Positions 1 through 36,576 of a stretch of 64,000 nucleotides of DNA are shown in pieces (position 1 is the first letter of the stretch; the number at the start of each line of letters is the position of its first letter). The notes below the pieces were generated by a model. It did no database searches. It saw only the letters and a program-made list of their open reading frames with translations, and was not told the DNA's origin. Position numbers and translations under genes: made by a program. The stretch comes from Kiritimatiellia bacterium (lineage in GTDB: Bacteria > Verrucomicrobiota > Kiritimatiellia > RFP12 > DVOR01): positions 72,394 to 136,393 of the forward strand of contig JAVBMC010000028.1 in assembly GCA_031552845.1 (NCBI GenBank). Reading direction: 5' to 3'.

Positions 1-2047
1 GGATTTGATCGTACTCAGTCGGGGCTAGCTGGCAAATAAAATCATTTTCAATGTGATATGTTTCATTAATGTACTTACGTATTACCGAATTTTTATGCGT
101 CGAATCAATGAGCCGATAGATTTGAAGCTTCTCGTACCCGTTTTTTGCATCTCGGTAGAGGGTCAAAAGAAATTTATTGTCAGCAAGACATGAAACGGTA
201 TTTTGATAATCAAATGAAGGAAGAACAAGCATCTCCCTTATCGTCTCCATACCTTTGTTTGTGTCCTTCGCGCTCAAAGGCATATATGAGCCATCCAGGT
301 TTCTTCTTCGATGATCCTCTGGCGTTTGACGTCCTTTTAAAAGATTTGAGAGCAGTTGATAAGTATCACCTAAATCATCGATGGTTTCAAAGTAACGCCT
401 CAGATAAATTAGTTTGATGATTAAAGGACATGTTGATCTAATAACGCTACTACATATTTGGCCAAAAGTGAGCATTTTGTCGGCTGTGATCAGGCGTTCA
501 GTAAGATTGCCGTCAGAAGCCTTTAAAAAATGAGCGGTTGAAATCGACGAAAACATTCTTTTCAGCACCTTCACCGTATCGATCACGGGCTCGATGTCGT
601 GAGTCAGTAACAGAACAGTCTTACCCTTGAACGAGTGAAAATCTTGAAAGAGCATGTTCAAGATCGCAAATTTCTTATCCTTGTCGAAGGAAGAAATAGG
701 GTCATCCAAAACGATCAAGTCTGGTTTTTTCGACAAACACTCAAACATGAAAAGAACCAAAGCGAAAGCATTACGTTCGCCGAAACTCAAATGCTGACTG
801 CCCCCCGAGACAGCTTCTGTGTATTCCACATGTCGAAGACGCAGGCGATGCCCATCGCTCTCATCTGTAATCAGCACCTCATATTTGTAACCGGCATTCG
901 CAAGGAAGCCATTGATCGTGCTGAGGTTTTCCTCAATGAGTTTCTTTGTAGCTTTGCGTTGTTTATTGATCTCTCCTTGCAATCTACCAGCATCGACCGA
1001 AAGCTCATCGAGTTTGCCGTTTAAGACTGCAATGATGCGCTGTGTTTCAGTTGAGTTTAGGTGCTCAAAAAAAGTTAAATCTAGACGAAGTGTCGGCAGT
1101 TTTTCAGCAACTTTCTCAGTTTCTTTAAAACTCTGGCCAGACAAGGACTTTAGTTGCTCAAGTTTGTCTGTAAGGGTGCCGATCTGAGTTTTTATGGAGA
1201 TCAAGAAATCAGTGTGCTCTTTTTGAAGCCCATCTTTCTGCTTGATAATCTGGTTAATTTTTGCCCGCGCTTCATCTGAAAAGTATTTTCCCAACTTTTC
1301 AATCACTCCAATAATCTTTGTGAGATGTTCAATAGTCTTCTTGTCGTATTCTTCGGAAAACCTTTTAATGGTCTCTCGTTTTGCGGTGGCAGGCAAGGTG
1401 CAAAACGGGCAAGCGTGGCTGATCTCAAGAAAGGGTTGTCCCTGCTGTTGCCAACCAATCCAAGATATATTTTTTTCGTGCTTCAGAAATGGTTCGTATT
1501 CCTCCAGCCCTTTGGGAATATGTTCATATTTATTACCTCTTTCCAACGCCTTATAACCGGGGCTAGCTTTTGATATCTCACTTTTTGCAGTCAATTTAAA
1601 ACATCCGGAAAGTTCACGAAGGTCCGTGAGAAAAAGATCAAGATCTGGATCCTCGGAAAAGGCCGACCTAGTTTTTTTGACGATTCCCTCTATTGCCTGA
1701 AGATGTTGCTCATAGTCAGGGGTTTTGATGAATATCTCAAAACTGTTTGCTACGAGTTCGTCCGGTTTAAATACAAATTGTTCCAAGTAATTTTCGTTGA
1801 AAATCCTGATACTGCCAATGCCCGCAAGACCATCAACCTCGGGCACAAGATTCTGCGGATTATCTTGTCTGAGCTTGAATGGAAGCAAATCAACCAGCGT
1901 AGCTTCATTTGATATCTTACGTTCTATGGCGGTGGCAATCGTACTCTTGCCGGTTCCATTGGCACCGTATTTGATATTCAGTTTTCCCTGTTCAATCTGG
2001 ATTTCTCCTTGATTGATATTATTGCAGTTCTTGAATATGATTTTCAT
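1..2047 (-). CDS. AAA-family ATPase, RloC/PrrC-like (restriction-linked anticodon-nuclease-type ATPase); partial, C-terminus beyond window start
   Basis: Hand translation of the minus strand from ATG (revcomp of cat 2045-2047) gives MKIIFKNCNNINQGEIQIEQGKLNIKYGANGTGKSTIATA... with a Walker A GANGTGKST. RBS aaggaa sits 7 nt upstream. No stop to position 1. Contains a coiled-coil-like region with an HACPFC (CxxC zinc-hook-like) motif. Lies directly downstream of hsdS in the same operon. Low GC (~40%). Confidence 0.7.
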   Translation of the reverse strand, partial: MKIIFKNCNNINQGEIQIEQGKLNIKYGANGTGKSTIATAIERKISNEATLVDLLPFKLRQDNPQNLVPEVDGLAGIGSIRIFNENYLEQFVFKPDELVANSFEIFIKTPDYEQHLQAIEGIVKKTRSAFSEDPDLDLFLTDLRELSGCFKLTAKSEISKASPGYKALERGNKYEHIPKGLEEYEPFLKHEKNISWIGWQQQGQPFLEISHACPFCTLPATAKRETIKRFSEEYDKKTIEHLTKIIGVIEKLGKYFSDEARAKINQIIKQKDGLQKEHTDFLISIKTQIGTLTDKLEQLKSLSGQSFKETEKVAEKLPTLRLDLTFFEHLNSTETQRIIAVLNGKLDELSVDAGRLQGEINKQRKATKKLIEENLSTINGFLANAGYKYEVLITDESDGHRLRLRHVEYTEAVSGGSQHLSFGERNAFALVLFMFECLSKKPDLIVLDDPISSFDKDKKFAILNMLFQDFHSFKGKTVLLLTHDIEPVIDTVKVLKRMFSSISTAHFLKASDGNLTERLITADKMLTFGQICSSVIRSTCPLIIKLIYLRRYFETIDDLGDTYQLLSNLLKGRQTPEDHRRRNLDGSYMPLSAKDTNKGMETIREMLVLPSFDYQNTVSCLADNKFLLTLYRDAKNGYEKLQIYRLIDSTHKNSVIRKYINETYHIENDFICQLAPTEYDQI

Positions 2048-2065
2048 TGAGGTGATTCCTTGAGA

Positions 2066-3241
2066 TCAAATCAATCTGGTTCTTCCGGTTAAAAGCTCCT
2101 GCATCATGGCTTGCTTGAGGGCGCGGGTCTTCTCCCGTCGCTGCTCCAACGCCGCCAGCTCCGCATCCATGTCCGTCAACACTTCGGCGATGGCGGTTTG
2201 TTCGGGGAAAGAAGGAAGTTTAAGCATAAGTGTCTTTAAGTCTTTCCCATAGAGATGATGGATTGTGATTCCTTGGGTAAGTTCGGCAATTTCATGTCTC
2301 CTTGCTTGCGTCAAGTAGTTCGCTAGAAAGACAGGGGCGTAGTCATTATCTTTTCGCCGGATGATGATAATGTCCCCGCCAAGCGCCACGTTGTCCATGA
2401 GGAGCACCGATGCAGTAGCCAAATCAATTCCGGTGGTCGTCGTAGAACCGGGCATTAGTACATCACCTTGAATTGAGGGACAACCGTCACTTGAATTTGT
2501 TAGACTGAAAACGTCCGAAATTACCCGGCCATAGGTAGTGAATAACTCGCCATAAAGAATGCATTGGTGAGTTCCTGAAGTCGTTGTCAGTGATTTCGAA
2601 AGTGCGTTTCCTTTCAAAACATCTGCGATGCTCCCCAATCGTATTTCTCGCCACTCGCCGGAAAAGCCGGAGAGACGGGTTTGGCTGGTGAGGAGTTGCT
2701 GCATGGTGGCCTGTTTGAGGTCGCGTTTTTTGGCGATTAGCCGATCCAACCCACCCAGCAGCTCATCCACATCGCTTAACGCCTCCGCGATAGCGTGTTG
2801 TTCGTTTTTGGATCGTGGCACTCCGATCCTAAGTTGAAGAATCTTGGAGACTGATAATCCCGGCTGGGCCGATGCTTCGGATAAGCGATTAAGGCGCATT
2901 TCTCCGAGGGCATAGGTTAAGAACTTGATGTTCGTGTCTTCGAGAGGGGTCACAACCACAGCGTGCTCTGATGCGAAGAACATCCCGGTTACACCAATTA
3001 CGTTACCGCATAGTGCGCCTTGCCGACCAATGATCGCAAATGATCCGGAGTGGGTATATTGGGACGTAAAGCCCCGCAGTCCATTCCCACCGTAGCAAGG
3101 ATATTGCGAGTGCTCGGTAATTCTTGACGCCGTGATGGTCTCGCCACTCTTCATCGAGGATATTGCTGAAAGTGTCTTTACCTCCCACTCCTCCGGAATG
3201 ACTCCGACCTCGGTCTGCTTGTATCCGGTCTTCACTTCCAT
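2066..3241 (-). CDS. hsdS: Type I restriction-modification specificity subunit HsdS
   Basis: 391-aa ORF with two target-recognition domains and conserved HsdS coiled-coil repeats (LPSFPEQTAIAEVLTDMDAELAALEQRREKTRALKQAMMQELLTGRTRL, and the central ...LIAKKRDLKQATMQQLLT...). Overlaps hsdM by 10 nt. Confidence 0.9.
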   Translation of the reverse strand: MEVKTGYKQTEVGVIPEEWEVKTLSAISSMKSGETITASRITEHSQYPCYGGNGLRGFTSQYTHSGSFAIIGRQGALCGNVIGVTGMFFASEHAVVVTPLEDTNIKFLTYALGEMRLNRLSEASAQPGLSVSKILQLRIGVPRSKNEQHAIAEALSDVDELLGGLDRLIAKKRDLKQATMQQLLTSQTRLSGFSGEWREIRLGSIADVLKGNALSKSLTTTSGTHQCILYGELFTTYGRVISDVFSLTNSSDGCPSIQGDVLMPGSTTTTGIDLATASVLLMDNVALGGDIIIIRRKDNDYAPVFLANYLTQARRHEIAELTQGITIHHLYGKDLKTLMLKLPSFPEQTAIAEVLTDMDAELAALEQRREKTRALKQAMMQELLTGRTRLI

Positions 3242-5748
3242 ATCATCCCCATCTGTTTGAGATGCTTTTTTACTTTAGCGGCGAGCACGGCCACTTCGTC
3301 GGTAAGCTGTGGCAACGGGGTGGCGTAGCGTTCCGCAAGTTGGCAGATGCGGCTGGTGAGAGTTCGTGAGACACGATCCAACTCGTCCTGTACAGCGGTT
3401 GTTATGATGGCCATCCATTTGTCGTCCACGACGAGGGTCTTGATGTCGTCCTCGGTGAGCGTGGGGTATTTGACGTAGAGTTTGTTTTCGAGATCTGTCT
3501 GTGCGGCTTTGAGCCGTGCCTTGGTGCCGGTCTGTCTGTTGAGCAGAGCGGCGTAGTCTTTGAGGGCTTGGCGTTCCTCGGCGTAATCTGGATCACTCTC
3601 GATTTCCTTGAGACGGGTTTGCACGGATTTTGATGTGATTTTCTGCTTGTCACCTTGGCCTTCGATGGCTTCCGCGAGTAGCCCTTTCTCACCGCTGTGC
3701 TCCTCGCCGCTGTGCTCCTCACGCATTTCGTCGAGCTGTTGCTCAATGCCGGCTAGTCTAGCTTTGATGGTTGCAATGGCATGGCGTTCAGCGGTGAAGT
3801 AACGGGCAATCAGCAGGTCAGCGGGGAGGAGATCGGACTTGAAGCGGCGCGTACCTTTCTTGACGTCTTCCTCCTCGGGCCAGACGAGTTTGCCTTCCTT
3901 GTTTTTGATCTGCGTGATTTCGCGGAGCAATGCCCCCGCTTTCCATCCGGCGTCGGAAATCAGGTAGCAATCATCCTTCATGGTCGAGTCCCAGTGATCC
4001 ATGAGGTGTTGATAGACATCGTAAGCGTCGAGCAGCGGCACGGTCTTGAAGGTGGCGAGCAAGTCCTCGGAGATGCTTTCAATGAGCGGCTTGGGATGGC
4101 CATTCTGGGCGAAATCTTTGAGCTGAGGAACGGTGGTCTTTTGCCATTTTACGAAGAGCTTTTTGGTCTTGGCTGTGAATGCAATGAATTCGGCGTGAGA
4201 AAAGATTGTCGGATTTACCTTGTCAATGGAACGTTTGAGCTCAAAGTAGCCGGAGCGACTGGACTTGAACAAGGCAGCACGCAGATTAGGCATAATTTTC
4301 CAGTAATTGCCGAGTGCATCAAGGTCGTGTTTCGGGATGCCGCCGCGCAGGTGGCCGTCGATGTCCTGTAGGTCCTCCGGCTCGGTGCTGTCGATGTAGC
4401 GCGGGAGGTTGAGGTTGTAGTCATTTTTTGGGTCGGCGATTTCGGCGACGGAGACCATACGGGCGTAGCGCGGGTCGCTTTCATCCTGCCGGGCGAAGGT
4501 GTCCACGATCCTGTGGATGTCCTGCTCTCGGAGTCTGTTTTTCGGACCGTCCTTTCTGAAGCCTTTGGAGGCATCCATCATGAAGATGCCCTTGCGGGCG
4601 GTGGCGTTTTCCTTGTCAAGCACAATGATGCAGGCAGGAATACCCGTGCCGTAAAAAAGGTTGGCAGGCAGGCCGATGATGGCCTTAAGGTAGCCGGAGC
4701 GGACGAGCTGCTGGCGAATGACAGCCTCGGCATTACTGCGGAAAAGGACGCCGTGCGGAAGAATGCACGCGCCTTTGCCCGTGCTCTTCAGGGAGCGGAT
4801 AATGTGGAGAAGGTAGGCGTAGTCGCCTTGCTTTTTCGGTGGCAAGCCCCAAGGGAAGCGCTGGAATTTGTCATCGCTGCCGTTCTCGCCTAGAGTGAGG
4901 CCGGTGGACCAAGCTTTGTCGGAGAACGGAGGATTGGCAACGACGTAGTCGTAGGTGCGGAGTTTTTGTTCGTTGTCTTTGTCTCTGAACTTGGGATCGA
5001 AGAGGGTGTTGCCCGAAAGGACATTGGCTGTCGGAAAGTCATGCAGGATCATGTTCATACGGGCGAGACCGGCAGTAGTCACATCCTTCTCCTGCCCTTC
5101 GAGTGTAATGTGTTTGCCCGCTTCGGCAGCGACTTTCAATAGTAACGATCCCGATCCGCAGGTGGGATCGTAGGCAGTGGTCCCAGCCTTGGAATTGGCT
5201 GGAGAGATACCGATGACTTTCGCCATGATCCGGCTGACTTCGGATGGAGTGTAGAATTGCCCCTTACTTCTTCCGCTTTCGCTGGCAAAGTGCCGCATGA
5301 GATACTCGTAAGCGTCGCCGAGGATGTCATCGTTTTCTGCGCGGTTCTTTGAAAAATCGAGTGCGGGGGTTTCAAAGATGGCGATGAGGTTGCCCAACTT
5401 TTCGACCTTTTGCGCGCCATCACCGAGCTTGTTGGAGTCGTTAAAGTCTGGAAAATAGCTGCGGGCGAGACGGGAGTTGGTGTCAATGAGCGGTTGGATG
5501 ACCCGCGTGTTGATGAGGTTGCCGATGTCGCTGTTGCCTTTAAGCGCGACCATGTCTTTGAAGCTCGCGCCCTTCGGAATGACGACCGGTGGCTTGAATC
5601 CATCGTAGTCCCCGTATTTGTCGGAGATGTATTTGATGAAAAGCATGAACAGGACGTAGTCCTTGTATTGGCTGGCATCCATTCCTCCGCGCAGCTCATC
5701 GCAGGAAGCCCATAGAGACGAATAAAGGTCAGATTTCTTGATGGCCAT
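3232..5748 (-). CDS. hsdM: Type I R-M N6-adenine DNA methyltransferase HsdM (long form, ~838 aa)
   Basis: N-terminal HsdM_N-like region, SAM-binding motif I, catalytic NPPF motif (VVANPPFSDKAW), and a long C-terminal coiled-coil extension. Confidence 0.9.
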   Translation of the reverse strand: MAIKKSDLYSSLWASCDELRGGMDASQYKDYVLFMLFIKYISDKYGDYDGFKPPVVIPKGASFKDMVALKGNSDIGNLINTRVIQPLIDTNSRLARSYFPDFNDSNKLGDGAQKVEKLGNLIAIFETPALDFSKNRAENDDILGDAYEYLMRHFASESGRSKGQFYTPSEVSRIMAKVIGISPANSKAGTTAYDPTCGSGSLLLKVAAEAGKHITLEGQEKDVTTAGLARMNMILHDFPTANVLSGNTLFDPKFRDKDNEQKLRTYDYVVANPPFSDKAWSTGLTLGENGSDDKFQRFPWGLPPKKQGDYAYLLHIIRSLKSTGKGACILPHGVLFRSNAEAVIRQQLVRSGYLKAIIGLPANLFYGTGIPACIIVLDKENATARKGIFMMDASKGFRKDGPKNRLREQDIHRIVDTFARQDESDPRYARMVSVAEIADPKNDYNLNLPRYIDSTEPEDLQDIDGHLRGGIPKHDLDALGNYWKIMPNLRAALFKSSRSGYFELKRSIDKVNPTIFSHAEFIAFTAKTKKLFVKWQKTTVPQLKDFAQNGHPKPLIESISEDLLATFKTVPLLDAYDVYQHLMDHWDSTMKDDCYLISDAGWKAGALLREITQIKNKEGKLVWPEEEDVKKGTRRFKSDLLPADLLIARYFTAERHAIATIKARLAGIEQQLDEMREEHSGEEHSGEKGLLAEAIEGQGDKQKITSKSVQTRLKEIESDPDYAEERQALKDYAALLNRQTGTKARLKAAQTDLENKLYVKYPTLTEDDIKTLVVDDKWMAIITTAVQDELDRVSRTLTSRICQLAERYATPLPQLTDEVAVLAAKVKKHLKQMGMIWK

Positions 5749-5847: not shown

Positions 5848-6996
5848 CTAACCGTTTTCCCCAGTGAAATACTCGGCGAGGGTGTGGAGAAACTCTGGTT
5901 TGAGAGAAACGGCTAGGTTTTCTTTCTGGATAACATCCAATTTCTTGGTCAGTTTTGAGAAGCTGATGTATCCGCAGACTTTGCCGAGTGGTTTTTCGCG
6001 GAGCGAGAAGGTGGGGCGGCGGATTTCTTGCGCGACTTTGTTGCGGCGTTCATCCGGTGCCACAAGGAAAAGGTTGATGGATAGATTGGGTTGTAGTGCC
6101 AGCAGGTCACTCATGCGCAGCAGTCCGGAGTAAACCGAGGTGGTGCATTCAATCTCAAACGCAGCCAAGATAGAGTTTCCTTTGAGCCAGAGTACATCAA
6201 TCAGTTCAATTGTCCGATTCGTGGCCTCATTAAATTGTGTGGGGAGCTCTTTCACCATGCGGTCAAATGCACCTAGTTCTTTACTTTTCCATTGGCGTGA
6301 GCGGTCGTTCCGCGCAACCCACAAATCAAATCCCATCTCTTCGCCTAGCTTGAGCAAGCGGTACTGAATCTCGGTGTGCCGTGTAGTGGCAGCGTCTTCG
6401 CCATCTATTACGGTGGATTGTTTTTTAGTCTTTACTGTCTCTTCTGTTTCCGGCACAGTGACCTGTACCTTAATAGTTGCTTTTCCCTTGCGTCGTTCCG
6501 CCATGTAGGTTGGCTTATAGGCTAGCTGTTTGGGGTCAACGGCACGCCAAGTCGGATTTGTATCAGCTTTCTTGAGCAAGGAGAAAATCAAGTCACCATC
6601 GGCCGTATTTTGAACACGCTTAGGACCGCCACGGATCATACACTTATACTTATTCCGATCTTCCGGTCCCGTGTAAAATGCTACTCGTCCTTCTAATTCT
6701 TCCATGGGAACACCGTGTTCGGGCGAAAGCAAAACAAGAGGCTTTACTACAAATCGTACCGGAAAGACATCATCCTGCCAAATTCTTGATTGATCTTTTG
6801 AGCGTTCAACGACCTTTAATGCTCCAACAAGACGCTTCATGCCTCCAGTCAGATAGCACAAGAAGATATCCCCGGATCTTACTTGCTCTATCGCAGCCTC
6901 ATTGGTTTTGCTTTGACGAAATCCTGAAATCCGTGCTCCGGATTTTTGAAACTCCGCCCATGTTGTGGCGGTAAACATATTAAACCAATAGGTCAT
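5848..6996 (-). CDS. EVE/PUA-like domain protein fused to an uncharacterised C-terminal domain (possible PD-(D/E)xK-like nuclease)
   Basis: 382-aa ORF. The N-terminus MTYWFNMFTATTWAEFQKSG...IFLCYLTGG...LVGALKVV resembles EVE/PUA-like modified-base readers. The C-terminal ~150 aa (IDVLWLKGNSILAAFEIECTTS...) has no obvious family. Driven by a TGgTATAAT promoter and a GAGGAG RBS. Confidence 0.5.
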   Translation of the reverse strand: MTYWFNMFTATTWAEFQKSGARISGFRQSKTNEAAIEQVRSGDIFLCYLTGGMKRLVGALKVVERSKDQSRIWQDDVFPVRFVVKPLVLLSPEHGVPMEELEGRVAFYTGPEDRNKYKCMIRGGPKRVQNTADGDLIFSLLKKADTNPTWRAVDPKQLAYKPTYMAERRKGKATIKVQVTVPETEETVKTKKQSTVIDGEDAATTRHTEIQYRLLKLGEEMGFDLWVARNDRSRQWKSKELGAFDRMVKELPTQFNEATNRTIELIDVLWLKGNSILAAFEIECTTSVYSGLLRMSDLLALQPNLSINLFLVAPDERRNKVAQEIRRPTFSLREKPLGKVCGYISFSKLTKKLDVIQKENLAVSLKPEFLHTLAEYFTGENG

Positions 6997-7035
6997 TGTT
7001 CAGGCTCCTCAAAAGCAAACGTCGATCTAAACGCT

Positions 7036-7128
7036 CAACCATGTGCCGATTATACCACGTCATCCCCTTAAAAGCAATCCTCAAGAAATCTTTCTGCGGT
7101 GGCCTTTTGTGGACGGTGTTTCTTGATG
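7036..7128 (-). promoter_or_regulatory. Conserved ~93-bp promoter cassette, copy 1 (-35 TTGCTT, 17 bp, extended -10 TGgTATAAT), driving the EVE-domain gene
   Basis: The minus strand reads ...aagatttcttgaggATTGCTTttaaggggatgacgTGgTATAATcggcacatggttg... ending ~45 nt before the ATG at 6996. It is ~80% identical to the 8696-8788 copy. Confidence 0.6.
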
Positions 7129-7619
7129 CGACTAGCGCGATGTCCATACGCCGTCCGCGGCTGGTATTTTCAATCGGTTCATTTTTCTCGCTCTTCTTCA
7201 GCGTCTCCGTATCTGCCGGGAGTTTCTTCGTTATTTTCAGGGGTCGTATATCAGGTGATATCGTGCTCATAAATCAGGTGATGTCGTACTCGTGTATCAA
7301 GTGATATGGTACCCCGAAAGAAGAGGAGTTTGCACACCTGGCAAATAACTGCTTCAGATACCTCTCCTATCCTCCGCGCCTCCGCGTGAGTTTTTTAGGT
7401 GTCGAGTAGTTTTAGGTATTGCTGCTGGCGTTCTTTGTTTTAATGCAGTATCGGAATGATATCAAACAAAAAAAGTCTTTTAATTCCGTATTGTTCCGAA
7501 TGGATTGCCGCACATATGTGTGTTTGAGCGAGTGTTTCTTGATGGTGGATGCGGGGCTGGTGGTGCGAGTTGCGTGTTTTGAGGTACATTTTGCGGGGGA
7601 GCGAATGGAGTATGTGGGA

Positions 7620-8618
7620 TTACTCACTATTCTTGCCGCCAGTGTCTTTTTGCATTAATGCCCGAATGGCGCGGTCGAAGTCACTTTCAAGCTGCTTCAT
7701 TTCGCGTGCGCGGTAGAGCTCGAATTCTTTTTCAGCCTTTTCGATTGCCTGTTTGTGAGATATGCGTCCGGCATCTTGCAAAATCTTTCTTTTGTGGCTG
7801 AGTATTTGATTGTCGAGTGCTTCAACCCAGTCTTGCATGGTCATTGGGGCTTGTTCCAGCGCCTGAAACTCCGCAAAGTCCAAGAATTGCGATACTAAAA
7901 GATTGAGGCGCTGTAATTCAAGCTCGGAAAGGTAATTTTTCGCTATCCTCACATCGTCTTTTGTGATGTAACCGCCCTTGAAATTGGTCATGCCGACAAG
8001 CGGCTTTTCGTTGTCGACCCGCTCGTGAATCACTTCGGCGGCGGTATGCTCGTGTACTGCAAAATGCAGTTTGTTTTGCACCGTTGCAAAGAATGTTTTG
8101 GTCATATCAGAGCGCGGATCGTAATCCGTCGCCGTAGCGTAAATGTCGGTAACTTGCTGGTAAAAGTTGCGTTCGCTGCTGCGAATGTCGCGGATGCGTT
8201 GTAGGAGTTCCCGGAAATAACGGCCGCCACCGTTTTTCAAGCGATCGTCGTCAAGCGTAAACCCTTTGCGGATATACTCGTTCAGTCGCTTCGTAGCCCA
8301 TTGACGGAACTGTGTGCCGCGTAAAGATTTAACTCGGTAACCGACCGAGATTACCACATCAAGGTTATAATAGTCAACTTGATACGTTTTGCTGTCGGCA
8401 GCAGTTGTTGCAAACTTTGCAACAACTGAATCCCTCATCAATTCGCCCTCTTCAAATACGTTTTTGATATGGCGGGAAATGGTAGATTTGTCACGTTCAA
8501 ATAACTTTGCCATTCGATCGAGAGACAACCACGCAGTTTCTGCATCAAAGTGCGTATCAATTGATATTTTCCCATCTTCTGTCGTAAAAATGATCATTTG
8601 ATTTTCTTTGCCGGTCAT
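7620..8618 (-). CDS. RhuM-family virulence/defense-associated protein
   Basis: The 332-aa product begins ...IIFTTEDGKISIDTHFDAETAWLSLDRMAKLFERDKSTISRHIKNVFEEGEL, the characteristic RhuM N-terminal HTH-like region. RBS AGGAGAA. Confidence 0.8.
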   Translation of the reverse strand: MTGKENQMIIFTTEDGKISIDTHFDAETAWLSLDRMAKLFERDKSTISRHIKNVFEEGELMRDSVVAKFATTAADSKTYQVDYYNLDVVISVGYRVKSLRGTQFRQWATKRLNEYIRKGFTLDDDRLKNGGGRYFRELLQRIRDIRSSERNFYQQVTDIYATATDYDPRSDMTKTFFATVQNKLHFAVHEHTAAEVIHERVDNEKPLVGMTNFKGGYITKDDVRIAKNYLSELELQRLNLLVSQFLDFAEFQALEQAPMTMQDWVEALDNQILSHKRKILQDAGRISHKQAIEKAEKEFELYRAREMKQLESDFDRAIRALMQKDTGGKNSE

Positions 8619-8695
8619 ATCACTGTTCTCCTAATTTCCGTAGCAATGAGTTCGCCCCTGCGGCGGAGTACATGCTTGTGTTGTGTACGTACAAG

Positions 8696-8788
8696 CAACC
8701 ATGTGCGGATTATATCACGTAGTATCGTCCAAAGCAATGCTCAAGAAATCTTTTTGAGCCGGCCTTTTGGGGCGGCGTTTCCTGATGG
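8696..8788 (-). promoter_or_regulatory. Conserved ~93-bp promoter cassette, copy 2 (-35 TTGCTT, 17 bp, extended -10 TGaTATAAT), driving the RhuM gene
   Basis: The minus strand reads ...aagatttcttgagcATTGCTTtggacgatactacgTGaTATAATccgcacatggttg..., ~85 nt upstream of the RhuM ATG at 8618. Confidence 0.6.
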
Positions 8789-9039
8789 AGGATGAGCGGG
8801 CTCTATATTTGATGGCGGAAAGTAGGCTGTGACTGAAGATAGGTTTTATAATTCGGCAGATGCGGAGTGTTTGTGAAATAGAAGGTCGGTTTGGTCGCGA
8901 TGTTCATGCATTATATTCACCTTACGTTATTCTTCGCGACCGAGTCGAGCACATTAAAAGCTATAACCACGCGATTCATCCCCTATTATCTATTCTTTAT
9001 CACTTATTACTTCGCCTTTCATGTTGGAGTCCCCCGACG

Positions 9040-9420
9040 TAGCTCGGATATTTGTGTGAGCCGGGCGGGTATTTTGTCTGAGCCCAGTGTGAAAAATGTG
9101 TGAGCTGAGTCAATATTTTGTCTGAGCCGTATGGATAATTTGTGCGAGCCGGGCAAGAATTTTGTACCACGTGCCTCGCACAAATTCAACATGCGCGTTT
9201 TTCGAGCGTGTTATATCGTCCGTACTCGCGGAGCACGAATCATAATTTTGCGGGATACGTATCAGCGTACCACGCATCACGTATCATCCATTTGCGCATC
9301 ACGTGCTATCGTACTGCGGGATACGTGATATAAGTTTGTGTGTCACGTGACATCGTACCGGATGATGTGTGTCATCGTACTGCGGGACACGTGTCATCCG
9401 TTTGCAGTACACGTATCCTT
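9040..9420. repeat. AT-rich degenerate tandem repeats (TTTGTNNGAGCCGGGC units; cluster of CACGTG-centred palindromes)
   Basis: 9040-9170 holds 4-5 units ...tttgtgtgagccgggc / ttttgtctgagcc / tttgtgcgagccgggc. 9230-9420 holds repeated ...atcgtactgcgggaYacgtg..., cacgtgctat, gtcacgtgacat and gacacgtgtcat. GC content is far below the flanks. Confidence 0.6.
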
Positions 9421-10369
9421 GTGCTGAGAAGCGAAGTAATATGTAGTAGATTAGAGGCAATAAATTGAGCCGAAAATGTTATAATGCCCAATATATGTAG
9501 GTGTTTTGAAGGTAGGGAGGGGTTCACCGAAGGCAGGCGCAGAGGAGGATGGGTGTTACGCGGAGATGCTGAATAAGCGAGCTCCCAACCTGTCTCGACT
9601 TCTCCGAGTTCTTCGACTTCATCACCACTACGAATACGCAACACCGACACTGTCAACGAAAATGTAGGTGCTCCAAAAGAAGGCACAAGCCCGACTTCAC
9701 CGATTTTCGCCGACTTCATCGACATGCAAAGTAGCGCAACAGCGAACATCATAACAAGAGCAGATAATGTGAGTACAGTAAACATGATAAAAGAAAAGTT
9801 GAAAGGTGAAAGAAACGAGAGTCTCGTAGCAGGCTCGACCCAATAGCCTGTTTGTTGTTGATGGCTCCTTGGAGCTTAAGCTCTCGTATGTCGGGGGGCG
9901 GAGATTCGTATTGAACTCCGAGCCACAAGGTCCGAATCAGTGACGAGTCACTCAATGGGGTCAACAGGGATGCAGTTTAGCAGAATTAAGGAATAAGTCA
10001 AGAAGAGAAGCAATAGGTAATAAGTGATAGGTAATAAGTTGTTGAACAGGAGGGAATAGGATGAAGAAAATAAATGGAGAGGGGTAAGCAGGAAAGGCTC
10101 ACGCGGAGGTGCGGAGAGAGAGGGGAAGGGTATCCGCAGATTGCACAGATGCTCGCAGATGGGGGGTGAGAGGAAGGGAGAGAAGGGGCTAGGCGTGGTG
10201 TAGCGGTTTCGGCGAAACGCGCCCTACCTACTGACGCACGCCAAAGAATTCGCATAATGCCGGCGAGGACGTCGGGTGCTTTCAAGCGGCATAACCGGCA
10301 CGCGATTTCGTCGATTTCATAGGCTTCTGCAACAAGCCAACACACCCTGACTGATGGCGCGTCGAGGAG

Positions 10370-13705: not shown

Positions 13706-15472
13706 TTAGTCGCGCCCGAAGCGGCGGGCGAGCTCGCGCCAGCTGGTCAGGAGCATGGTGGGGCGTCCCTTCGGACACGTATAAGGCATTTGCGTTTGAA
13801 GGAGGCGCCGCAGGAGTTCCTCAATCGCGCGGGCATCAAAGGTTTTGTGGAAGCCGGCGGCGGCGCGTCCGGCGGCTTTGGCGAGAACCTCCTCGCGCCA
13901 GCGTTCGGAGCCGCGTTTTGTTTCGGCGGCTAAGTCGGTCGCGAGGGTGATGAGCAGTTCGCGTGCCGAAACCTCTTGCAAGATGGCAGGGACGGCATCA
14001 ATCATGAAACGGTCGCTACCCATGTCAGCGATTTGAAAACCCATCGTCTGTGCGGCATCGAGAAACGAGCGCAGGCGTGCGGCATCGGTGGGCGGAAGTT
14101 GAAGCGTCTCAGGAATCAACAGCGTCTGCGATGGTACCGGTGCTTCGGCGGTGCGGCGGATGAGCGTGTCGTAAACGATCCGCTCGTAAGCCGCGCGAGG
14201 GTCGAGAGTGATGTAACCCGTGTCAGTCTCTAATAAAATGTACCGTCCGCCTGCGAGGCCGAGAATCTTGTGGTGCTTCCACTGCGGCGTGTCGGGCGAG
14301 GGCGGCAAGTCGAACGGATCAAAGGCGTCGGGTGTCGAGGCGGGTGTCGGAGCCGTCACGGGTAAAGAAGGTTGCGCTGGTTGAGTCAGCGAAATATAAG
14401 GATGCTTGATTGGCGGGAGTTCAAACTCAGCGGTCGGTATCGAAGGAGTTTCCGGAGCTACAACGGGCTGCGCGGGATGGTGTTGGGTCAACGCATTGGA
14501 GATCGCGCGACAGAGAGCATCGCGCAGGTCGTTGGGTTTACGGAAGCGGACTTCACGCTTGGCTGGGTGGACGTTGACGTCGAGGTCTTCCGGCGGGAGG
14601 TCGATGAAGAGGATGAGGATCGGCTTGGTGTCGTTGTCGGTCTTGGGATACGCGGCAGAGACGGCGTAGTTGATGACAGCGGCTGAGGCGGGGCGGTTGT
14701 TGATAAAGGTATAGTATTCGCTGCGGTCGCCGCGCGTGAAGGTGGGATGACCGATCCAGCCGTGGATGCGGATGCCGTTGTAGGTGGCGTCGACCGGGCG
14801 CATGAGTCCGCTGAGGTCGATGTCGAGCAGTTCGGCGATGCGTTCTTCCAGCGTGGCGCCGGCGGGCAGGCGGTAGAGTTCGCGGCCATCGCTTTTGAGG
14901 ATGAGACCGATGTCGGGATGCGCAAGCGCATTGAGGATGAACGTGGCGCGGATGCGGGCGTTCTCAGTGGCGTAGGCACGGAGGAACTTGCGGCGTGCGG
15001 GGACGTTGAAGAATAGGTCGCGGACTTCGACGGTGGTGCCGGGCGGAGTTCCGGCGTCCTTAACGTCGAGGACTTTACCGCCTGCGATGGCGATCTCGGT
15101 GCCGACATCGTCTTGCGGGCGGCGGGTACGCAGAAGGAAGCGCGAGACGGAGGCGATGGAGGGAATGGCTTCGCCGCGGAAGCCGAGGGTGTTGATGCGC
15201 TCGATGTCGTCAACGTCTTTGATCTTGCTGGTGGCTTGACGTTCGAGACAGAGGAGGGCGTCGGCGCGGTTCATGCCACAGCCGTCGTCGTGCACGCCGA
15301 TGAGCGTGCGCCCGCCGTCGGCAGTTTCGATGGTGACGTGGGTAGCACCGGCGTCGATGGCGTTCTCGAGCAGCTCTTTGACGACGGAGGCCGGGCGTTC
15401 AACAACCTCACCCGCCGCAATTTTGTTTGCGACGTGGGCGGGGAGTTGAATGATGCGGGCTTCGGTGTCCAT
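13706..15472 (-). CDS. mutL: DNA mismatch repair protein MutL
   Basis: N-terminus MDTEARIIQLPAHVANKIAAGEVVERPASVVKELLENAIDAGATHVTIE (GHKL ATPase box). 588 aa with a C-terminal dimerisation domain. Confidence 0.95.
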   Translation of the reverse strand: MDTEARIIQLPAHVANKIAAGEVVERPASVVKELLENAIDAGATHVTIETADGGRTLIGVHDDGCGMNRADALLCLERQATSKIKDVDDIERINTLGFRGEAIPSIASVSRFLLRTRRPQDDVGTEIAIAGGKVLDVKDAGTPPGTTVEVRDLFFNVPARRKFLRAYATENARIRATFILNALAHPDIGLILKSDGRELYRLPAGATLEERIAELLDIDLSGLMRPVDATYNGIRIHGWIGHPTFTRGDRSEYYTFINNRPASAAVINYAVSAAYPKTDNDTKPILILFIDLPPEDLDVNVHPAKREVRFRKPNDLRDALCRAISNALTQHHPAQPVVAPETPSIPTAEFELPPIKHPYISLTQPAQPSLPVTAPTPASTPDAFDPFDLPPSPDTPQWKHHKILGLAGGRYILLETDTGYITLDPRAAYERIVYDTLIRRTAEAPVPSQTLLIPETLQLPPTDAARLRSFLDAAQTMGFQIADMGSDRFMIDAVPAILQEVSARELLITLATDLAAETKRGSERWREEVLAKAAGRAAAGFHKTFDARAIEELLRRLLQTQMPYTCPKGRPTMLLTSWRELARRFGRD

Positions 15473-15526
15473 GGGTGCGGATTATACCACAGGCAAAGCC
15501 CGGTTTCAATTCTAAAGGGGTGAGGC

Positions 15527-18656: not shown

Positions 18657-19539
18657 CCCTTTAAGCTACAAATATCTCGCATTGTCGCAAAAAAACGCTC
18701 CCAAAGCAAGCCCTAAATCTCAATGTGTAGCGGCAAGCTCACGCGGAGACGCAGAGGCGCGGAGAGAAAAGAGAAGAGGACACCAGCGATGAAGTCGACG
18801 AAAATCGGAGAAGTCGTGCTAAGAGAATATGGAGGGCGGCTTTGCCAAAACCGCCGACCTTTTTAATACGGCTAACGCAAACAAACTTGTGATGAACGCC
18901 TTAACCCTTCCAAAACGTTGTTTCGCCCGCTGTTCCCTGAAACGGATGGATTGGGTGCCACGTTCTTTCTTTTGCCACCATTTTTTATAGCCTCAATATG
19001 GCGTCAAAAACGAAGTGCTTTTGGGTTTGAAGGCACGTGCCTTCAACTTCAAAGGCACCTGTAATGTACTCTTACTTACACGTGTAACCAAACTTTACTT
19101 ACGCCTGTAAGTAGAACTCACTTGCACGTGCGAGTGAAGTTGAATACACCTCGATTTTGCATAGTGTAAAACAGAGAGTAAGGCTGGATCTTTAAATTAG
19201 GGAGTGTAGAGTTGCAAGGAGGCTTGTTTTGGCACGTTCGATTCCTTGATTGGTATCCTGTTACCTGTTTCTGCTGTTTGTTCGCTGAGCAATTGAAGTG
19301 AAAACTCAAAACCGGGCTGTTTGGGGGCATGTTGGAGAAGGTGATCGCGGTGCCCATGGAAGCAAGTTCGCAGGGTGTGCGATTTTGAATGTCTTGTCTT
19401 TTCTGCTTGCTATTGGCGGTTGGGTCTGTTACACTTGAGATTGTTGGAGGGATTATGCCGCGTGTCGGTAGGTGTGCATTGCGTGTCGGTTTTTGAGGCG
19501 GGGACGGTTAGAGAATTTTTCGATAAAGGATGGCACAGG

Positions 19540-20973
19540 ATGAGTTTGAAGAAACGGTTTATCTGTCTGCTTGTTTTCTTGTTGTGTTGCGGGAGCGGTT
19601 TGCTGGTGTTGAATGGACCGGTGATTCGGGCAGATTCGGTGGCGTCTGCGAATGAGGAGGTGAGGCCGATTGATTTTATTGTGCGGACAACGGTGGATTA
19701 TTTTGAGGCGGTGCGGCAATTCCGTGTGTTGGCACCGGAGCTTGTTGCAGGGGAGAGGTTCAGTGCAGAGACGGCATCGGCGAATCTGTTCTTGTATTAT
19801 ATTACATCGCAGTATGGGTTGCATTGGCATACGCCGGAGTTTGATAGTCTGGTTTTGAGTGAGTTTAAAAAGACCTATCCGCCTATTACGCGCGAGGTAC
19901 TTGAGGCTGTGCGCGTGCGTTTGGATGAGACGCCGCCGCCTAGGCCTTGGCCGCGTGAGTGGGTGTTGAAATCAGAGTTAGCTATGCCGGAGTATTTTTT
20001 GCCGCATCCGCGTATTACGCTTATCAATGACAAAACGGTGCTGATTTATTATAAGATCTGTCAGGTTGACGATAGTGCATGGGAGGGGGTTAAGGAGGAA
20101 TTTCTGGTGTTCTTTGCAGATGGGCAGCGTCCACCTCAGGCAGTTGCTGCGGCAGAGAAGCAGGAGTTTTTACCAGTGATAGATTTGAAACTGAAGGAGC
20201 GCACGAATGGCTTCTTCCAGCCTCGTCGTTCAGGTCCTGATCTTTTGTGGAGAACGATGGCCAAGTATTGCTGTGTATTGGCGGATAGCTATCATGAACT
20301 GTTATTGGATGGATTGCAATGCGGGAATCCACAGGTTGAGGAGGGTGCATTTAATTCCTTGCACCATCGGTTTGTCTCGGCGTATTATTTTAATCAACGT
20401 GCGCTGCCGCCGAAGATCGATTATTTGAATCTTTGCTGCATGGCGTTGTCCTCAAAATTGCACGTTGAAGAGAATGAAAAGGTTGTATCTTTTTGGGCAC
20501 TTGGCAACCCGTTCACGATTAAGCATATCAAGCATCGTAATTGTTTTTGTCAAACGGATGAGTTTCTTTCGTTTGGGAAGCGGTTAAAGTTGAAGCTTGA
20601 TCTGTTTTGTTTTATGTGGCCTCGTGTAGAGAAACGTTGCGTTGTGGTTCCGCTGACGCGCGAGGACCTCAAGGCTGAAGTATTGTTAAACTTTCAGTTT
20701 CTGGGCAAATGCTCGGACGTGTGGAATGCGCTGTTTGAACAATTGAATGTCGGCCTGCGAATATCGAATAAGATGGGGGGCGTATTGCTGCCTGCCGAGG
20801 CGATTGAAGATTTTAAGCTGCATCCGCCGGTCATTATTCAGAATTCGCGTGATGTACAAGTGGATTCGCAAGTAAAGAAAGCTCAGAAAGCATTTGATAA
20901 GACAGCTGAAAAGATATCTCCAGCGACGCAGAATGACGGGCAGAAAATATCGTCGGGGCAATTAGAAAAGTAA
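19540..20973 (+). CDS. Secreted hypothetical protein (orphan, low GC)
   Basis: In-frame ATG at 19540 preceded by RBS aaagga. Signal peptide MSLKKRFICLLVFLLCCGSGLLVLNG. ~477 aa with no recognisable domain. The region is ~45% GC against ~60% in the flanks. Confidence 0.6.
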   Translation: MSLKKRFICLLVFLLCCGSGLLVLNGPVIRADSVASANEEVRPIDFIVRTTVDYFEAVRQFRVLAPELVAGERFSAETASANLFLYYITSQYGLHWHTPEFDSLVLSEFKKTYPPITREVLEAVRVRLDETPPPRPWPREWVLKSELAMPEYFLPHPRITLINDKTVLIYYKICQVDDSAWEGVKEEFLVFFADGQRPPQAVAAAEKQEFLPVIDLKLKERTNGFFQPRRSGPDLLWRTMAKYCCVLADSYHELLLDGLQCGNPQVEEGAFNSLHHRFVSAYYFNQRALPPKIDYLNLCCMALSSKLHVEENEKVVSFWALGNPFTIKHIKHRNCFCQTDEFLSFGKRLKLKLDLFCFMWPRVEKRCVVVPLTREDLKAEVLLNFQFLGKCSDVWNALFEQLNVGLRISNKMGGVLLPAEAIEDFKLHPPVIIQNSRDVQVDSQVKKAQKAFDKTAEKISPATQNDGQKISSGQLEK

Positions 20974-20981
20974 AGGAGCGT

Positions 20982-21395
20982 ATGATGAAGAAACTAGGGT
21001 TTGTGTTATTGGTGCTTTCCACACTCGGCGTTTTTGTGTGTTGTTGGGCCTCGGACGTTTTTTTGAAATCAGTTGGCTGGGAGGGGCTGTCGCATGAACA
21101 ACAGTTTTTGATTGATCGATTGTGCAACTTGATGTGGATTCCACCCGCGCTCTGTATGCTTGGGGGACTTCTCATTACGGCAGGGAGTCTTCGGATGAAG
21201 TCCAATGCCGGACGGTGGTGGATGCTGATTGCCACGTGTAGTATGCTCGCGTTGGGATTGTCCGGGTGGCTCGCTTTGTTTATCAATAGCGTGCTGTTTG
21301 CGTTCTTCCTGACGTTCTATCCCAAAGAGAAAGGGACGTTGACCGATGGTTCGGTTTTTCTGGACGGCATGCAATCCGATAGCGGATGCCGATAA
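20982..21395 (+). CDS. Small membrane protein (hypothetical)
   Basis: 137 aa with 3-4 predicted TM helices. RBS aaggag 8 nt upstream. Follows the previous gene by 8 bp, so probably the same operon. Confidence 0.55.
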   Translation: MMKKLGFVLLVLSTLGVFVCCWASDVFLKSVGWEGLSHEQQFLIDRLCNLMWIPPALCMLGGLLITAGSLRMKSNAGRWWMLIATCSMLALGLSGWLALFINSVLFAFFLTFYPKEKGTLTDGSVFLDGMQSDSGCR

Positions 21396-21428
21396 GGCTG
21401 GTGATCGAGTGTTTTTGAAAGGGGTGTT

Positions 21429-21818
21429 GTGGTGCTTGCTTCGTTCGGTTATTTGCTCTGGGCCGTGTATGCTCCCTTATTCTTACTTTTGGCCTGTGCG
21501 TGGGTGTTTCGTCGTTATCTGACGCTGACGCGTATTCTCTGCATCTGTTGGCTTATTATTTGCCTGTTGCTAGTGGTTTGTGAAGTGGGTTGTAATTCCA
21601 TTGTGCCTGTTCGAAGGGTGCGTTGGTTTTCTGTTTTATTGCAGAGCCTATTGCCTATCTTGTTGCCGGCTATCGTCATCATCGTGACTGCTAAAAAAAA
21701 GCATGGATGGCTGCATGGATTGGCGACGATATTGTGGCTAGTCCCTCCTTCTGTTCTTTTGAGCGAATGGATTTTTAACTACTTTGGCTTCATCAGTCGT
21801 TATCAGGTTATTTGGTAG
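21429..21818 (+). CDS. Small membrane protein (hypothetical)
   Basis: 129 aa, hydrophobic (~4 TM). GTG start. Third gene of the low-GC operon. Confidence 0.45.
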   Translation: MVLASFGYLLWAVYAPLFLLLACAWVFRRYLTLTRILCICWLIICLLLVVCEVGCNSIVPVRRVRWFSVLLQSLLPILLPAIVIIVTAKKKHGWLHGLATILWLVPPSVLLSEWIFNYFGFISRYQVIW

Positions 21819-21948
21819 TCTGTTCGTGGAGAGATTTTATGGTCAATGATTGGAGATAGCGATGAAAGCATATTGGTTGTGTTGCGGCGTCCGGTGCCGA
21901 GGGCTGAGGATGGGGCTTTTTGGTGGGGTGGAGAATTGGTAAATGTGA

Positions 21949-24465
<2,517 letters not shown>

Positions 24466-29920: not shown

Positions 29921-29949
29921 TTGCCTTATCGGTGGAGGTGTGTTATACT
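29921..29949 (+). promoter_or_regulatory. Sigma70-like promoter (-35 TTGCCT, 17 bp, -10 TgtTATACT) for the paralog operon
   Basis: ttgccttatcggtggaggtgtgttatact lies ~120 nt upstream of the ATG at 30071. Confidence 0.5.
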
Positions 29950-30070
29950 CCGTATGTTTTCGACAGACAGAAAAGCGAGAGGACATATAGTGCGTTTGGC
30001 GGGGGGCTGCTGGCGCGCGGAATCTGCCGAAAGCCATGGGGTAACTGTACCTTATTATAAAGGCTGTATT

Positions 30071-33000
30071 ATGAAACGAAATGTATTGTTAGTCTCCGCT
30101 TTAGCGCTTGTTTCAATGTGCCATGGTTTTACGATGCCTGTGTGGGAGGTTGGGACGATTACCGGTGATACCGACGTCATTTCCGAAGGGACAACGGTTA
30201 CGGCGTATGCAGTTGGCGGCGCGACGGAGGTGAATGGCGTGAGTTTTGTGAAGACGCCGAACAACGGTAATACGAGCGTTCAATATTGGGGGACTTATTT
30301 GACCGTCAATATCGGCATTCGGGGAACGCGCGCTTATTCGGCTACACGCGGTACCCCAAGCGGAATGAGTGAGGCTTATGTTACGATGTTGCGGGGAGAG
30401 CTGATGGCGTATACGGATGCGAACTCGACCTTTGAGGCGGAGGGAGTGATTCAGCTGCAGGGCTTGATTCCGGGCGCGCAATATATTTTGCAGGTGTGGT
30501 GTAATGATAGCTCAGGGTCGTCATCCGCCTCGCGGCAGACGATGTTGATTGCGAATATTTTTGATGCAACAGTGACGGTGCGGCAGAACATGGAGGCGAA
30601 GGCAGGAGGGGCGGGGCAGTATGCTGTTTTGCGCTTTACGGCCCCGGCGACTGCGCTGACGATCGATTTGACGGCTCCGCATGTGATCGGGGCAACGGAT
30701 GCTATTTTGATTTCCGCGATTCAGTTGCGGGAGGTTGCTGCTACGACGCCGAATGCCTATGCGTGGAGCGGTGGCGTTAATAATGTTTGGGCGGCGGATG
30801 ATTTAAACTGGGGCGGCGATGGGGCGCAGGCGCCTTGGGCAGTTGGCAGCGGCACGGAGGCGATGGCGTTGATTTATCCGCCGCAACCCACCACCACCAC
30901 GGTATTGCGGGTGGAGTCGACCATTGAAGCGGGAGTGGTGTCTTCAGTGGGCAGTACAGTTTTGCAAGGCAACGGGATGTTGAATACCACAGCTGCCGTG
31001 GTTGATAGCGATCTGCTTGCAGATGTGCGCGTGCAAACGGATGTGTTGCAAAAACATGGCGGCGGCGTGTTGTCGTTTGTCAATCCGTTAGGGCATGCAG
31101 TAGGTGTACTGGCGGTTTCAAACGGTGCGGTGCGCTTGTCGCCACTGCCGATATTTGGCGGTCTGACGACCCACTTGGATGCGTCCGATATCACGAGCAT
31201 GGATGTTGACGCGAATGGCGGCGTGGTAGCGTGGCGGTCGGTGAATGGAGCTCCGGCGCGTTATACGTTCCCGACTGCCGATGCAGCCACGTTTGTTCCG
31301 CCGGTGTATGCGGCGGATGCGTTTGGCGGACGCGGTGGCGTACGGTTTGGTTCCGAGGGGCCGTCAAAGTTGACGTCGACAGTAACAACAAATGCCCGCA
31401 GCGTTTTCTTGGTGATGAAGCTGAGTGTATTCAAGGACTATCAAGAGGTCTGGGGGATTAATGCGCAAAACAGTGATACGATCCGCGGTATACGGTTGTG
31501 GGGAGCAGGCTCGCCGAACAACATGAAGTGGTTTACTGACCGTGGCAATACAACCGGCGGGAATGGAGTATTGAACGATGAAGAGCTGTTCTGGGTAGAT
31601 GGAGTTTGGAGCGAAAATTATCCATTGGCGTCGACAACGGCAGCGCAGGTGTTGAGTTTGCAAACGAGCGGCGGCGCGGTGGGTAAGTATTTTGCGATGG
31701 GGTCGTATTTTTATGCGTCGGCTAATCGGACTGGACGGTATCTGCAAGGTGATGTGGCGGAATTGATTGTGTATGACCGGTTGTTGTCGAGTGCTGAACG
31801 GCAGGTCATTGAACAGTATTTGATTGCCAAGTGGGCGGGAGCTGAGCGGCAGAGTCTGGCGGCGAATATTTTGTCGGACTCCATGAAAGTGATTGTGGAG
31901 GCGCAGGGGACTTTATCGCTGGATGGCGTTTCGCAAGAGGTGAGCGGCTTGTCTGGAGACGGCACGGTTGCCGCTACGGCTCCGGCGGAGTTGGTCGTGA
32001 ACACAACACAGGATGCGGTGTTTAATGGGGCATTTAAAGGGGCGTTAAATGTCCGCAAGCAAGGCACGGCGGCGTTGAAATTGTTGGGCAGCAGCACTCA
32101 CAGTGGCATGTTGGATATCCGTGAGGGCAGCGTCATCGCGGGGCAGGAGTTCCCTACGGAGGGTTTGTTGTACCGCTTGGATGCGGGTCGCCCAGAAACG
32201 TTGACTGTAAATGCATCCGGGCAGGTGTCGGCATGGGCTGACTCGCAAGCCGACAGCACTGTGGTGTTCAGTCAGGCCAACGCGGCGACTCAGCCGGATT
32301 ATGTGCCAAGTGCTTTTAACGGCCAGGGTGGCGTGCGTTTTGGTGCAGAAGGGAAAGTAACCTCGTTGGAATATGACCAGAGCACTGTGAATAAGACGGT
32401 GTTTCTGGTGGTGTATACCGAGTCCACCACGGTTGAGTTTGCGGGCGTGTGGGGGAGTTGTGCCAGTGGACAAAATGTAGGATTCCGTTCAAGCGGAACT
32501 GCAACCTCAGGCGGGTATGGCGCTTCAAACCAATGGGGATTCGCAAAGGGGAGTTCCGGCGACTTTGTTCCAGATAACAATAACGGGTCTTTCCGGACAA
32601 ATGGTGTTGCGGTGGGTAATGTAGGTCCCGTTATTCCGGAGTTTGAGGTACAGGTAATCGCACTGAATCGTAAGACGGCGTCTACCTTTGCCCAGACGGC
32701 TGTCGGCGAATATTATTGGGAGGGCGAACGGCCTTACATGGGTATTATCGGCGAAGTGATTGTTTACGACCGTGACCTGACGGCGGACGAGTTTGCTCAA
32801 GTAGAGGGGCTGTTGATGTTGAAGTGGGGGGCACGAAAGGAGACTGCGGCATCGCACTTGTCGTCCTCGTCGGGGTTGGTAATGACAAAGGGTACGGTCT
32901 TGGATTTGAAGGGGAGCGATCAGGCGGTGCGCAGTTACAGCGGTGCCGGGCAAGTGGTGAATGGGCGTTTGATTGTCAGCGAACAGGTCACGGCTACGGG

Positions 33001-33277: not shown

Positions 33278-33306
33278 ACATAGGTGAGAAATATAGGAAG
33301 CAGATT

Positions 33307-36552: not shown

Positions 36553-36576
36553 TTGTAACTGAGAAGGACTAAAAAG

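Follow-up and report, generated by a model that had tools for sequence, protein, structure and literature searches.

A duplicated candidate promoter module ahead of two unrelated defence genes in a Kiritimatiellia bacterium

Horizontally acquired genes often arrive without a usable promoter, and a locus in a Kiritimatiellia bacterium shows how two such genes may have been wired by one reused, host-style promoter. The window analysed here is a stretch of 64,000 nucleotides (positions 72,394 to 136,393 of contig JAVBMC010000028.1, assembly GCA_031552845.1). It contains two copies of a 93-bp element on the minus strand: copy A lies ahead of a gene for a 382-residue protein that combines an EVE/YTH-like reader with an NmeDI_C-type nuclease, and copy B lies ahead of a RhuM-family gene. 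The two repeats are probably diverged copies of one locally duplicated, host-adapted sigma-70-type promoter module placed ahead of two acquired defence genes. Such a module would comprise a -35 hexamer TTGCTT, a 17-nt spacer, a TRTG-like or extended -10 element (TGnTATAAT), an A/T-rich stretch resembling an UP element, and a conserved distal block. Its local duplication would have given RhuM and the nuclease an autonomous, host-adapted promoter each, with both genes placed upstream of an operon for a type I restriction-modification (R-M) system and a PrrC-like ATPase. RNA polymerase would be expected to start about 7 nt past the -10 element, at the A of a conserved ATGGTTG, and either ordinary recombination or a tandem duplication may have produced the two copies, with gene replacement as the next step.

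The original prediction had described the pair 7036-7128 and 8696-8788 as roughly 80% identical, and a global alignment of the minus strands agrees: 75 of the 94 aligned columns are the same (79.8%), with one 1-nt indel. A repeat finder reports the pair as an ungapped direct repeat with a spacing of 1660 bp (7036-7112 and 8696-8772, 81% over 77 nt), and the longest exact run common to the two copies is 14 nt. An nhmmer profile built from both copies recovers each at E~2e-33 and finds no further full copy in the window, where nothing else scores better than E=0.45; because both copies are recovered at this level and the window holds no comparable match, the repeat is far beyond chance. Both copies share their orientation and their placement with respect to a gene start. 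Copy A ends 40 nt before the ATG of the 382-residue protein (at 6996) and spans -40 to -132 from that start codon, and copy B ends 78 nt before the ATG of RhuM (at 8618), spanning -78 to -170. Homology between the copies stops sharply at ATGGTTG on the gene side.

Every motif that had been ascribed to the element was located in both copies. Read on the minus strand, each runs through TTGCTT, 17 nt, TG(G/A)TATAAT, C(G/C)GCAC and ATGGTTG. TTGCTT-N17-TATAAT is exact in both (7049-7077 and 8709-8737) and is followed by C(G/C)GCACATGGTTG at 7036-7048 and 8696-8708. Both copies show the hexamers, the 17+/-1 nt spacing and the TG one base 5' of the -10 hexamer by which sigma-70 extended -10 (TGn/TRTG) promoters are defined. 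The element resembles such promoters in its TTGCTT, its 17-nt spacer, its TGnTATAAT and an A/T-rich stretch at -40 to -52, and differs from them in a -35 hexamer that agrees with the E. coli consensus TTGACA at only three of six positions, which is why a generic promoter scanner passed over the cassettes; its activity is predicted from sequence. The same hexamer agrees with the apparent host preference, TTGCYT. Mismatches between the copies affect 8 of the 17 spacer positions and 11 of 77 positions elsewhere (Fisher p=0.005), and the hexamers, the TG and the 17-nt spacing are unchanged. This concentration of mismatches in the spacer argues for a constrained promoter and not for a neutrally decaying duplicate.

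Judged by the 6-nt discriminator, transcription would start at 7042 and 8702, about 7 nt past the -10 element. The predicted 5' regions (46 nt for copy A and 84 nt for copy B) end in good Shine-Dalgarno sites, GAGGAG and AGGAG, respectively. We regard the reading of the 93-bp element as a putative promoter as well supported. Its earlier description as a promoter plus leader holds in silico for the promoter, given the identical hexamers, 17-nt spacing and extended -10 element and an architecture shared with gyrB and mutL, whereas the leader is minimal, with about 7 nt conserved past the predicted start. Short open reading frames (ORFs) of 20 residues (7042-6980) and 23 residues (8702-8631) begin at the conserved ATG and have only Met-Val in common; we do not regard them as evidence, as such an open length is not unlikely by chance.

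The same promoter style recurs in front of core genes. The pattern TGNTATAAT occurs five times in the window, with 0.69 occurrences expected; two of these are the cassettes, and two of the remaining three lie directly 5' of mutL (15481-15489) and gyrB (21979-21987). With up to two mismatches allowed, TTGCTT-N17-TATAAT has 14 matches against 2.8 expected, a count reached in none of 100 shuffles, and the promoter motifs are 5-7 fold enriched over shuffles. Of the 12 non-cassette matches, about 7 were seen, on comparison with the ORF map by eye, to stand just 5' of ORF starts in the right orientation, and an architecture of the cassette type precedes gyrB, mutL and about six other core ORFs. The host consensus appears to be TTGCYT-N17-(TRTGn)TATAMT, with the cassettes as apparently perfect instances of it. 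A position weight matrix derived from eight core sites ranks the cassettes 1st and 4th of ~128,000 positions, a weak and partly circular support, as the training sites were themselves chosen by motif resemblance. The mutL promoter (15472-15516, minus strand) reads TTGAAA-N17-TGGTATAAT and shares its discriminator with the cassettes (TATAAT CCGCACCC ATG versus TATAAT CCGCAC ATG). The mutL ATG lies only 8 nt past the -10 element, which suggests a leaderless or near-leaderless mutL mRNA in this host.

Both downstream genes belong to highly mobile and highly conserved families. The nuclease family is very widespread, with 4555 proteins at E<=1e-5 among 8000 candidates scored; the 119 best non-self matches are 58-67% identical. 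Its homologues come from Verrucomicrobia, Terriglobia and other groups, where the gene stands alone, in contexts unrelated to one another. On one metagenome contig, a solitary EVE/YTH-like plus NmeDI_C gene is placed between two HSP70-family genes. RhuM homologues that are 73-80% identical range from Fibrobacteres to archaea, and the next-best homologues (67% identical for the nuclease, 80% for RhuM) are scattered across phyla. The protein database contains no close relative of the organism: at a neighbouring core gene, no genome exceeds 68% identity. In the homologous loci that we fetched, the cassette is absent upstream of the homologous genes and DNA similarity ends at the ORF boundaries. 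In the closest RhuM relatives, the gene overlaps neighbouring hsd genes inside a type I R-M operon and has no promoter of its own. Since the homologues lack the element and DNA homology ends with the ORFs, the 93 bp are not the cargo of either gene, and instead appear to be local and host-like in style. Modular promoter capture, one of the two origins that had been proposed for the shared element, fits these comparative data.

A precedent exists in putative mobile promoters (PMPs), which were proposed as promoters for horizontally acquired genes (Matus-Garcia, Nijveen and van Passel 2012, PMC3488235). The element would correspond to a diverged two-member family of this kind, standing ahead of acquired genes, and agrees with the published definition. 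Identity and position are both borderline (81% over 77 ungapped nt, 79.8% over 94 columns). The neighbours are non-homologous, with unrelated proteins downstream and RhuM on one side and non-coding DNA on the other upstream. The element resembles neither the end of an insertion sequence nor a riboswitch, with no Rfam match, no terminal inverted repeats and no transposase nearby. It differs from the published PMPs in that its copies lie in a single defence island at a distance of only 1.66 kb and flank one of the genes, that their identity is at the family threshold and well below the ~92% typical of published doublets, and that copy B reaches -170, past the 150-nt search frame of that study (PMC3488235). 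As a duplicated promoter, the locus is a clean example of a known phenomenon, the duplication or reuse of promoters before acquired genes, with no new mechanism.

The upstream block, which extends from -36 to -87, consists of three parts: an A/T-rich AAAGATTTCTTGAG that abuts the -35 hexamer and is identical in copies A and B, a conserved CAAAAGGCC, and a distal CATCA(A/G)GAAAC. The A/T-rich stretch may act in the manner of an UP element. Between them, the distal and proximal parts make up an inverted repeat of 8 bp, in which copy B has a single mismatch. No fold of RNA or single-stranded DNA exceeds shuffled controls (RNA z -1.2 to +0.8; single-stranded DNA z 0.03, -0.02, 1.14 and -1.19), and a GC hairpin of copy B is not conserved in copy A; with no significant fold and no shared hairpin, any function of the block is more likely to be exerted on duplex DNA, for example through binding of a factor. 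A third, promoter-less copy after RhuM (Table 1) comprises only the upstream-most ~30-45 nt (the U block, AGCCCnGCnCATCCnCCATCA(A/G)GAAAC(A/G)C). It shares an exact 13/13 match, CATCAAGAAACAC, with copy A and ~83% identity over 30 nt with copy B. A full decayed cassette was rejected for this region, where significant likeness is confined to the U block. The block's core, CCATCAAGAAA, recurs at 5733-5743 on the minus strand, at hsdM codons 2-5 (AIKK); a relic of the hsdM 5' end was rejected as its source, as nothing is alike beyond these 11 nt, and the occurrence is probably a codon-driven coincidence. A small plus-strand ORF across the repeat, or a conserved U-block peptide, was likewise set aside, the frame being broken by the indel and the substitutions being, by inspection, mostly non-synonymous.

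Several considerations weigh against a simple duplicated promoter. With only two copies, the conservation could partly reflect the age of the duplication and not constraint, and the promoter activity and start sites of both copies are predictions from the DNA. The core promoter alone does not account for the conserved block from -36 to -87, the distal part of which occurs a third time without a promoter. In addition, the repeats directly flank the RhuM segment, an arrangement that would also fit an origin by insertion or from attachment sites. Four other explanations were considered. It is doubtful, though conceivable, that the element is a regulated promoter-operator in which the block, through TCAAGAAA-N29/30-TTTCTTGA and CAAAAGGCC, forms one factor's site and co-regulates both defence genes. 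This is the co-regulation option of the original prediction; it would extend the duplicated-promoter interpretation and does not exclude it. The inverted repeat and its surrounding blocks are the best-conserved parts outside the core promoter, and the proximal arm abuts the -35 hexamer, a typical position for an activator or repressor; an 8-bp inverted repeat within 93 bp is, however, only mildly unlikely by chance. Phased iteron arrays lie 5' of both copies and one iteron family matches the spacer and -10 element of copy B at 16/23 positions, but this match is borderline and absent in copy A. No regulator gene was seen in the island part of the window, and no more sites occur in its 54 kb of core DNA. 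As a regulon motif, TTTCTTGA was rejected, its excess in the island lying largely inside low-GC coding sequence. Should the block bind a factor, the two genes would constitute a small co-regulated defence unit, to which the downstream R-M operon might also belong.

It is unlikely that the repeats are att-like or cassette-boundary junctions left when a ~1.66-kb RhuM module, and perhaps an earlier, now decayed module, inserted into the promoter region of the nuclease and type I R-M operon, with promoter similarity as a by-product of target duplication. In agreement with such junctions, the direct repeats bracket exactly one gene, the third partial copy directly follows RhuM and creates a U-gene-U-junk-U array, homology ends sharply at ATGGTTG, and RhuM and the nuclease are both single-gene mobile units in many contexts. 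However, neither an integrase nor a transposase nor any other recombinase is encoded in the window (the island extends beyond it on the left), the repeats are only 80% identical with no identical core and no exact stretch longer than 14 nt, conservation follows the promoter elements and not a crossover core, and the database scans returned no other copies. Features of attC are absent and no single-strand fold exceeds shuffles (z +1.1 to -1.2). An integron attC or hairpin element was rejected accordingly: only copy A has one RYYYAAC-like box (GCTCAAC), with no partner GTTRRRY box, and by placement the repeat is 5' of genes and carries a promoter, with no integrase in the window. The element resembles attC or attL-attR sites in that ~90-bp direct repeats delimit single-gene units in an array, and differs from them in its position 5' of genes, its promoter and its lack of R''/R' boxes, a folded bottom strand, a nearby integrase and an identical core. 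A bolder proposal, which we consider improbable, is that the U block and promoter mark the boundary of a recombination-driven, promoter-carrying, integron-like cassette hotspot for single-gene defence modules. In that event, RhuM, the EVE-nuclease and one decayed module (the third U copy) would have been installed upstream of the type I R-M/PrrC operon, each with a ready-made host promoter, and either the machinery or a shared regulator would bind the phased iteron arrays; this would be considerably more interesting than promoter reuse. A generic dispersed repeat, of the repetitive extragenic palindromic or miniature inverted-repeat transposable element type, that merely happens to precede two genes is very improbable. 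Host-type intergenic repeats do exist, for example CTCCGCGCCTCCGCGTGAG at 7362-7395, 10093-10118 and 18735-18766. The element, in contrast, is present as two full copies and one partial copy clustered within 1.8 kb, with the other 54 kb of the window free of it, lacks terminal inverted repeats and a stable hairpin, and has the same orientation and position relative to the gene start in both full copies. Nor do GTDB genomes, JGI metagenomes or IMG/VR hold real matches, and the dispersed repeat that the original prediction had named as its counter-case was found neither in these data nor in the window. An exact-pattern scan of 185,579 GTDB species genomes for AAAGATTTCTTGAGNATTGC (the -35 block) gave four single hits in unrelated phyla, equal to chance expectation and with no extended similarity. 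Scanning the JGI metagenomes for ACGTGNTATAATCNGCACATGG (the -10/start block) gave two contigs of one unrelated organism, with the pattern alone matching, and IMG/VR returned nothing for three exact patterns. A blastn search of 6990-9990 against plasmids and phages matched the RhuM coding sequence only. Least credible is a cis-regulatory leader RNA or small RNA gene in place of a promoter. Conservation does run a few nucleotides past the predicted start site and short ORFs begin at the conserved ATG in both 5' regions, but ~86 of the 93 conserved nucleotides lie upstream of that site, the region matches nothing in Rfam at E<=1, no fold z-score is significant, and the two short ORFs have only Met-Val in common.

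The coordinates of the elements and of the neighbouring genes are collected in Table 1.

Table 1. Features of the duplicated element and its surroundings in the window
Feature	Position	Strand	Basis or remarks
Cassette copy A: upstream block, promoter and first ~7 transcribed nt (predicted)	7036-7128	-	Ahead of the EVE/YTH-like + NmeDI_C nuclease gene
Copy A, -35 hexamer TTGCTT	7072-7077	-	Motif match
Copy A, extended -10 TGGTATAAT	7049-7057	-	Predicted start site 7042, the A of ATGGTTG
Copy A, inverted repeat TCAAGAAA (7119-7126) - N30 - TTTCTTGA (7081-7088)	7081-7126	-	Proximal arm inside the A/T-rich AAAGATTTCTTGAG (-51 to -38); putative function
Cassette copy B	8696-8788	-	Ahead of the RhuM gene
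Copy B, -35 hexamer TTGCTT	8732-8737	-	Motif match
Copy B, extended -10 TGATATAAT	8709-8717	-	Predicted start site 8702
Copy B, inverted repeat TCAGGAAA (8778-8785) - N29 - TTTCTTGA (8741-8748)	8741-8785	-	Motif match
Third, promoter-less copy of the upstream-most block (AGCCCnGCnCATCCnCCATCAAGAAACAC)	7521-7566	-	54-99 nt past the RhuM stop; E 2.5e-5
RhuM-family gene	7620-8618	-	PF13310; PADLOC PDC-S05
382-residue protein gene: N-terminal EVE/YTH-like PUA-fold reader, C-terminal NmeDI_C-type nuclease	5848-6996	-	AlphaFold model; NmeDI_C annotation
Downstream genes: hsdM (3232-5748), hsdS (2066-3241), AAA_13 (PrrC/RloC-type) ATPase ORF (starting at 2047, running off the window)	2-5748	-	Library matches
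Three tandem 23-bp iterons	7244-7312	+	116-184 bp 5' of copy A; may be related to the arrays at 9046-9165 and 9249-9415

On the minus strand, the order of the locus is ~1.2 kb of non-coding DNA, copy B, RhuM, the third U block, ~390 bp of non-coding DNA, copy A, the gene of the 382-residue protein, hsdM, hsdS and the AAA_13 ORF. The RhuM assignment made earlier is borne out by PF13310 at E 9e-107. For the 382-residue protein, no match was found in the Pfam library used; its C-terminal half has a precomputed NmeDI_C annotation and a PADLOC REase_II match. In an AlphaFold model (mean predicted local distance difference test score, pLDDT, 72.7), the N-terminal ~150 residues match PH1033/1wmm, the EVE proteins 2gbs and 1zce, YTH m6A readers and the EVE-HNH enzyme VcaM4I. 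The EVE-domain label given to this gene is thus backed by the fold of the model and lacks Pfam support. The modelled protein looks like a modified-base reader fused to a nuclease, which makes its designation as an EVE-domain defence gene reasonable, and it is likely to be a modification-dependent restriction enzyme. That the two promoter-equipped genes are unrelated, as had been stated, is confirmed by BLASTP, which finds no significant similarity between their products.

Within the window, the type I R-M locus lacks hsdR, and neither HsdM nor HsdS has an exact entry in the public protein collection. The GC content of positions 1 to ~10,000 is 42-55%, mostly below 50%, and that of most of the rest is ~55-61%; the low GC content points to an acquired island. 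R-M genes with a PrrC-like ATPase and RhuM are a described defence neighbourhood (PMC3710099). The locus resembles the type I R-M loci in which genes for PrrC/RloC and RhuM or Fic/Doc are embedded (Anantharaman et al. 2013, PMC3710099) in its set of hsdM, hsdS, an AAA_13 ABC-type ATPase and RhuM. There, and likewise in the closest relatives, RhuM lies inside the operon and the ORFs overlap, whereas here RhuM and the additional EVE-nuclease sit upstream as separate units, each with its own promoter copy. A second low-GC stretch (46-48%) at 19000-22000, just 5' of gyrB, contains three ORFs without a Pfam match (19375-21818). Elsewhere in the window, three tandem paralogous genes of ~1,070-1,120 residues occupy 29921-39786 on the plus strand, with DNA segments 60-77% identical at a ~3.25-kb period; the first of them has no Pfam match.

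The iteron arrays are helically phased and present in the non-coding stretches upstream of both cassettes. Five 22-bp iterons of TTTGTSTGAGCC lie at 9046-9165, and CACGTG-type palindromes recur every 22 bp at ~9249-9415; these two arrays are bracketed by 38-nt imperfect inverted repeats (8984-9021 and 9425-9462). A similar cluster of CACGTG palindromes is found at ~19040-19160. The window contains no rep, par, transposase or other gene cognate to the iterons, which may represent arrays of operators, a defunct replicon or partition site, or relics of transposon ends. Repeats of CCGACTTCATCG occur at 9595-9722 and 18787-18820; together with CTCCGCGCCTCCGCGTGAG, they are host-type dispersed repeats, present in island and core intergenic DNA alike. 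Public contigs of this organism are limited to two Logan contigs, 100% identical to the window, with breaks at 5653 (inside hsdM) and between 9721 and 9936, just past the repeat copies at 9595-9722.

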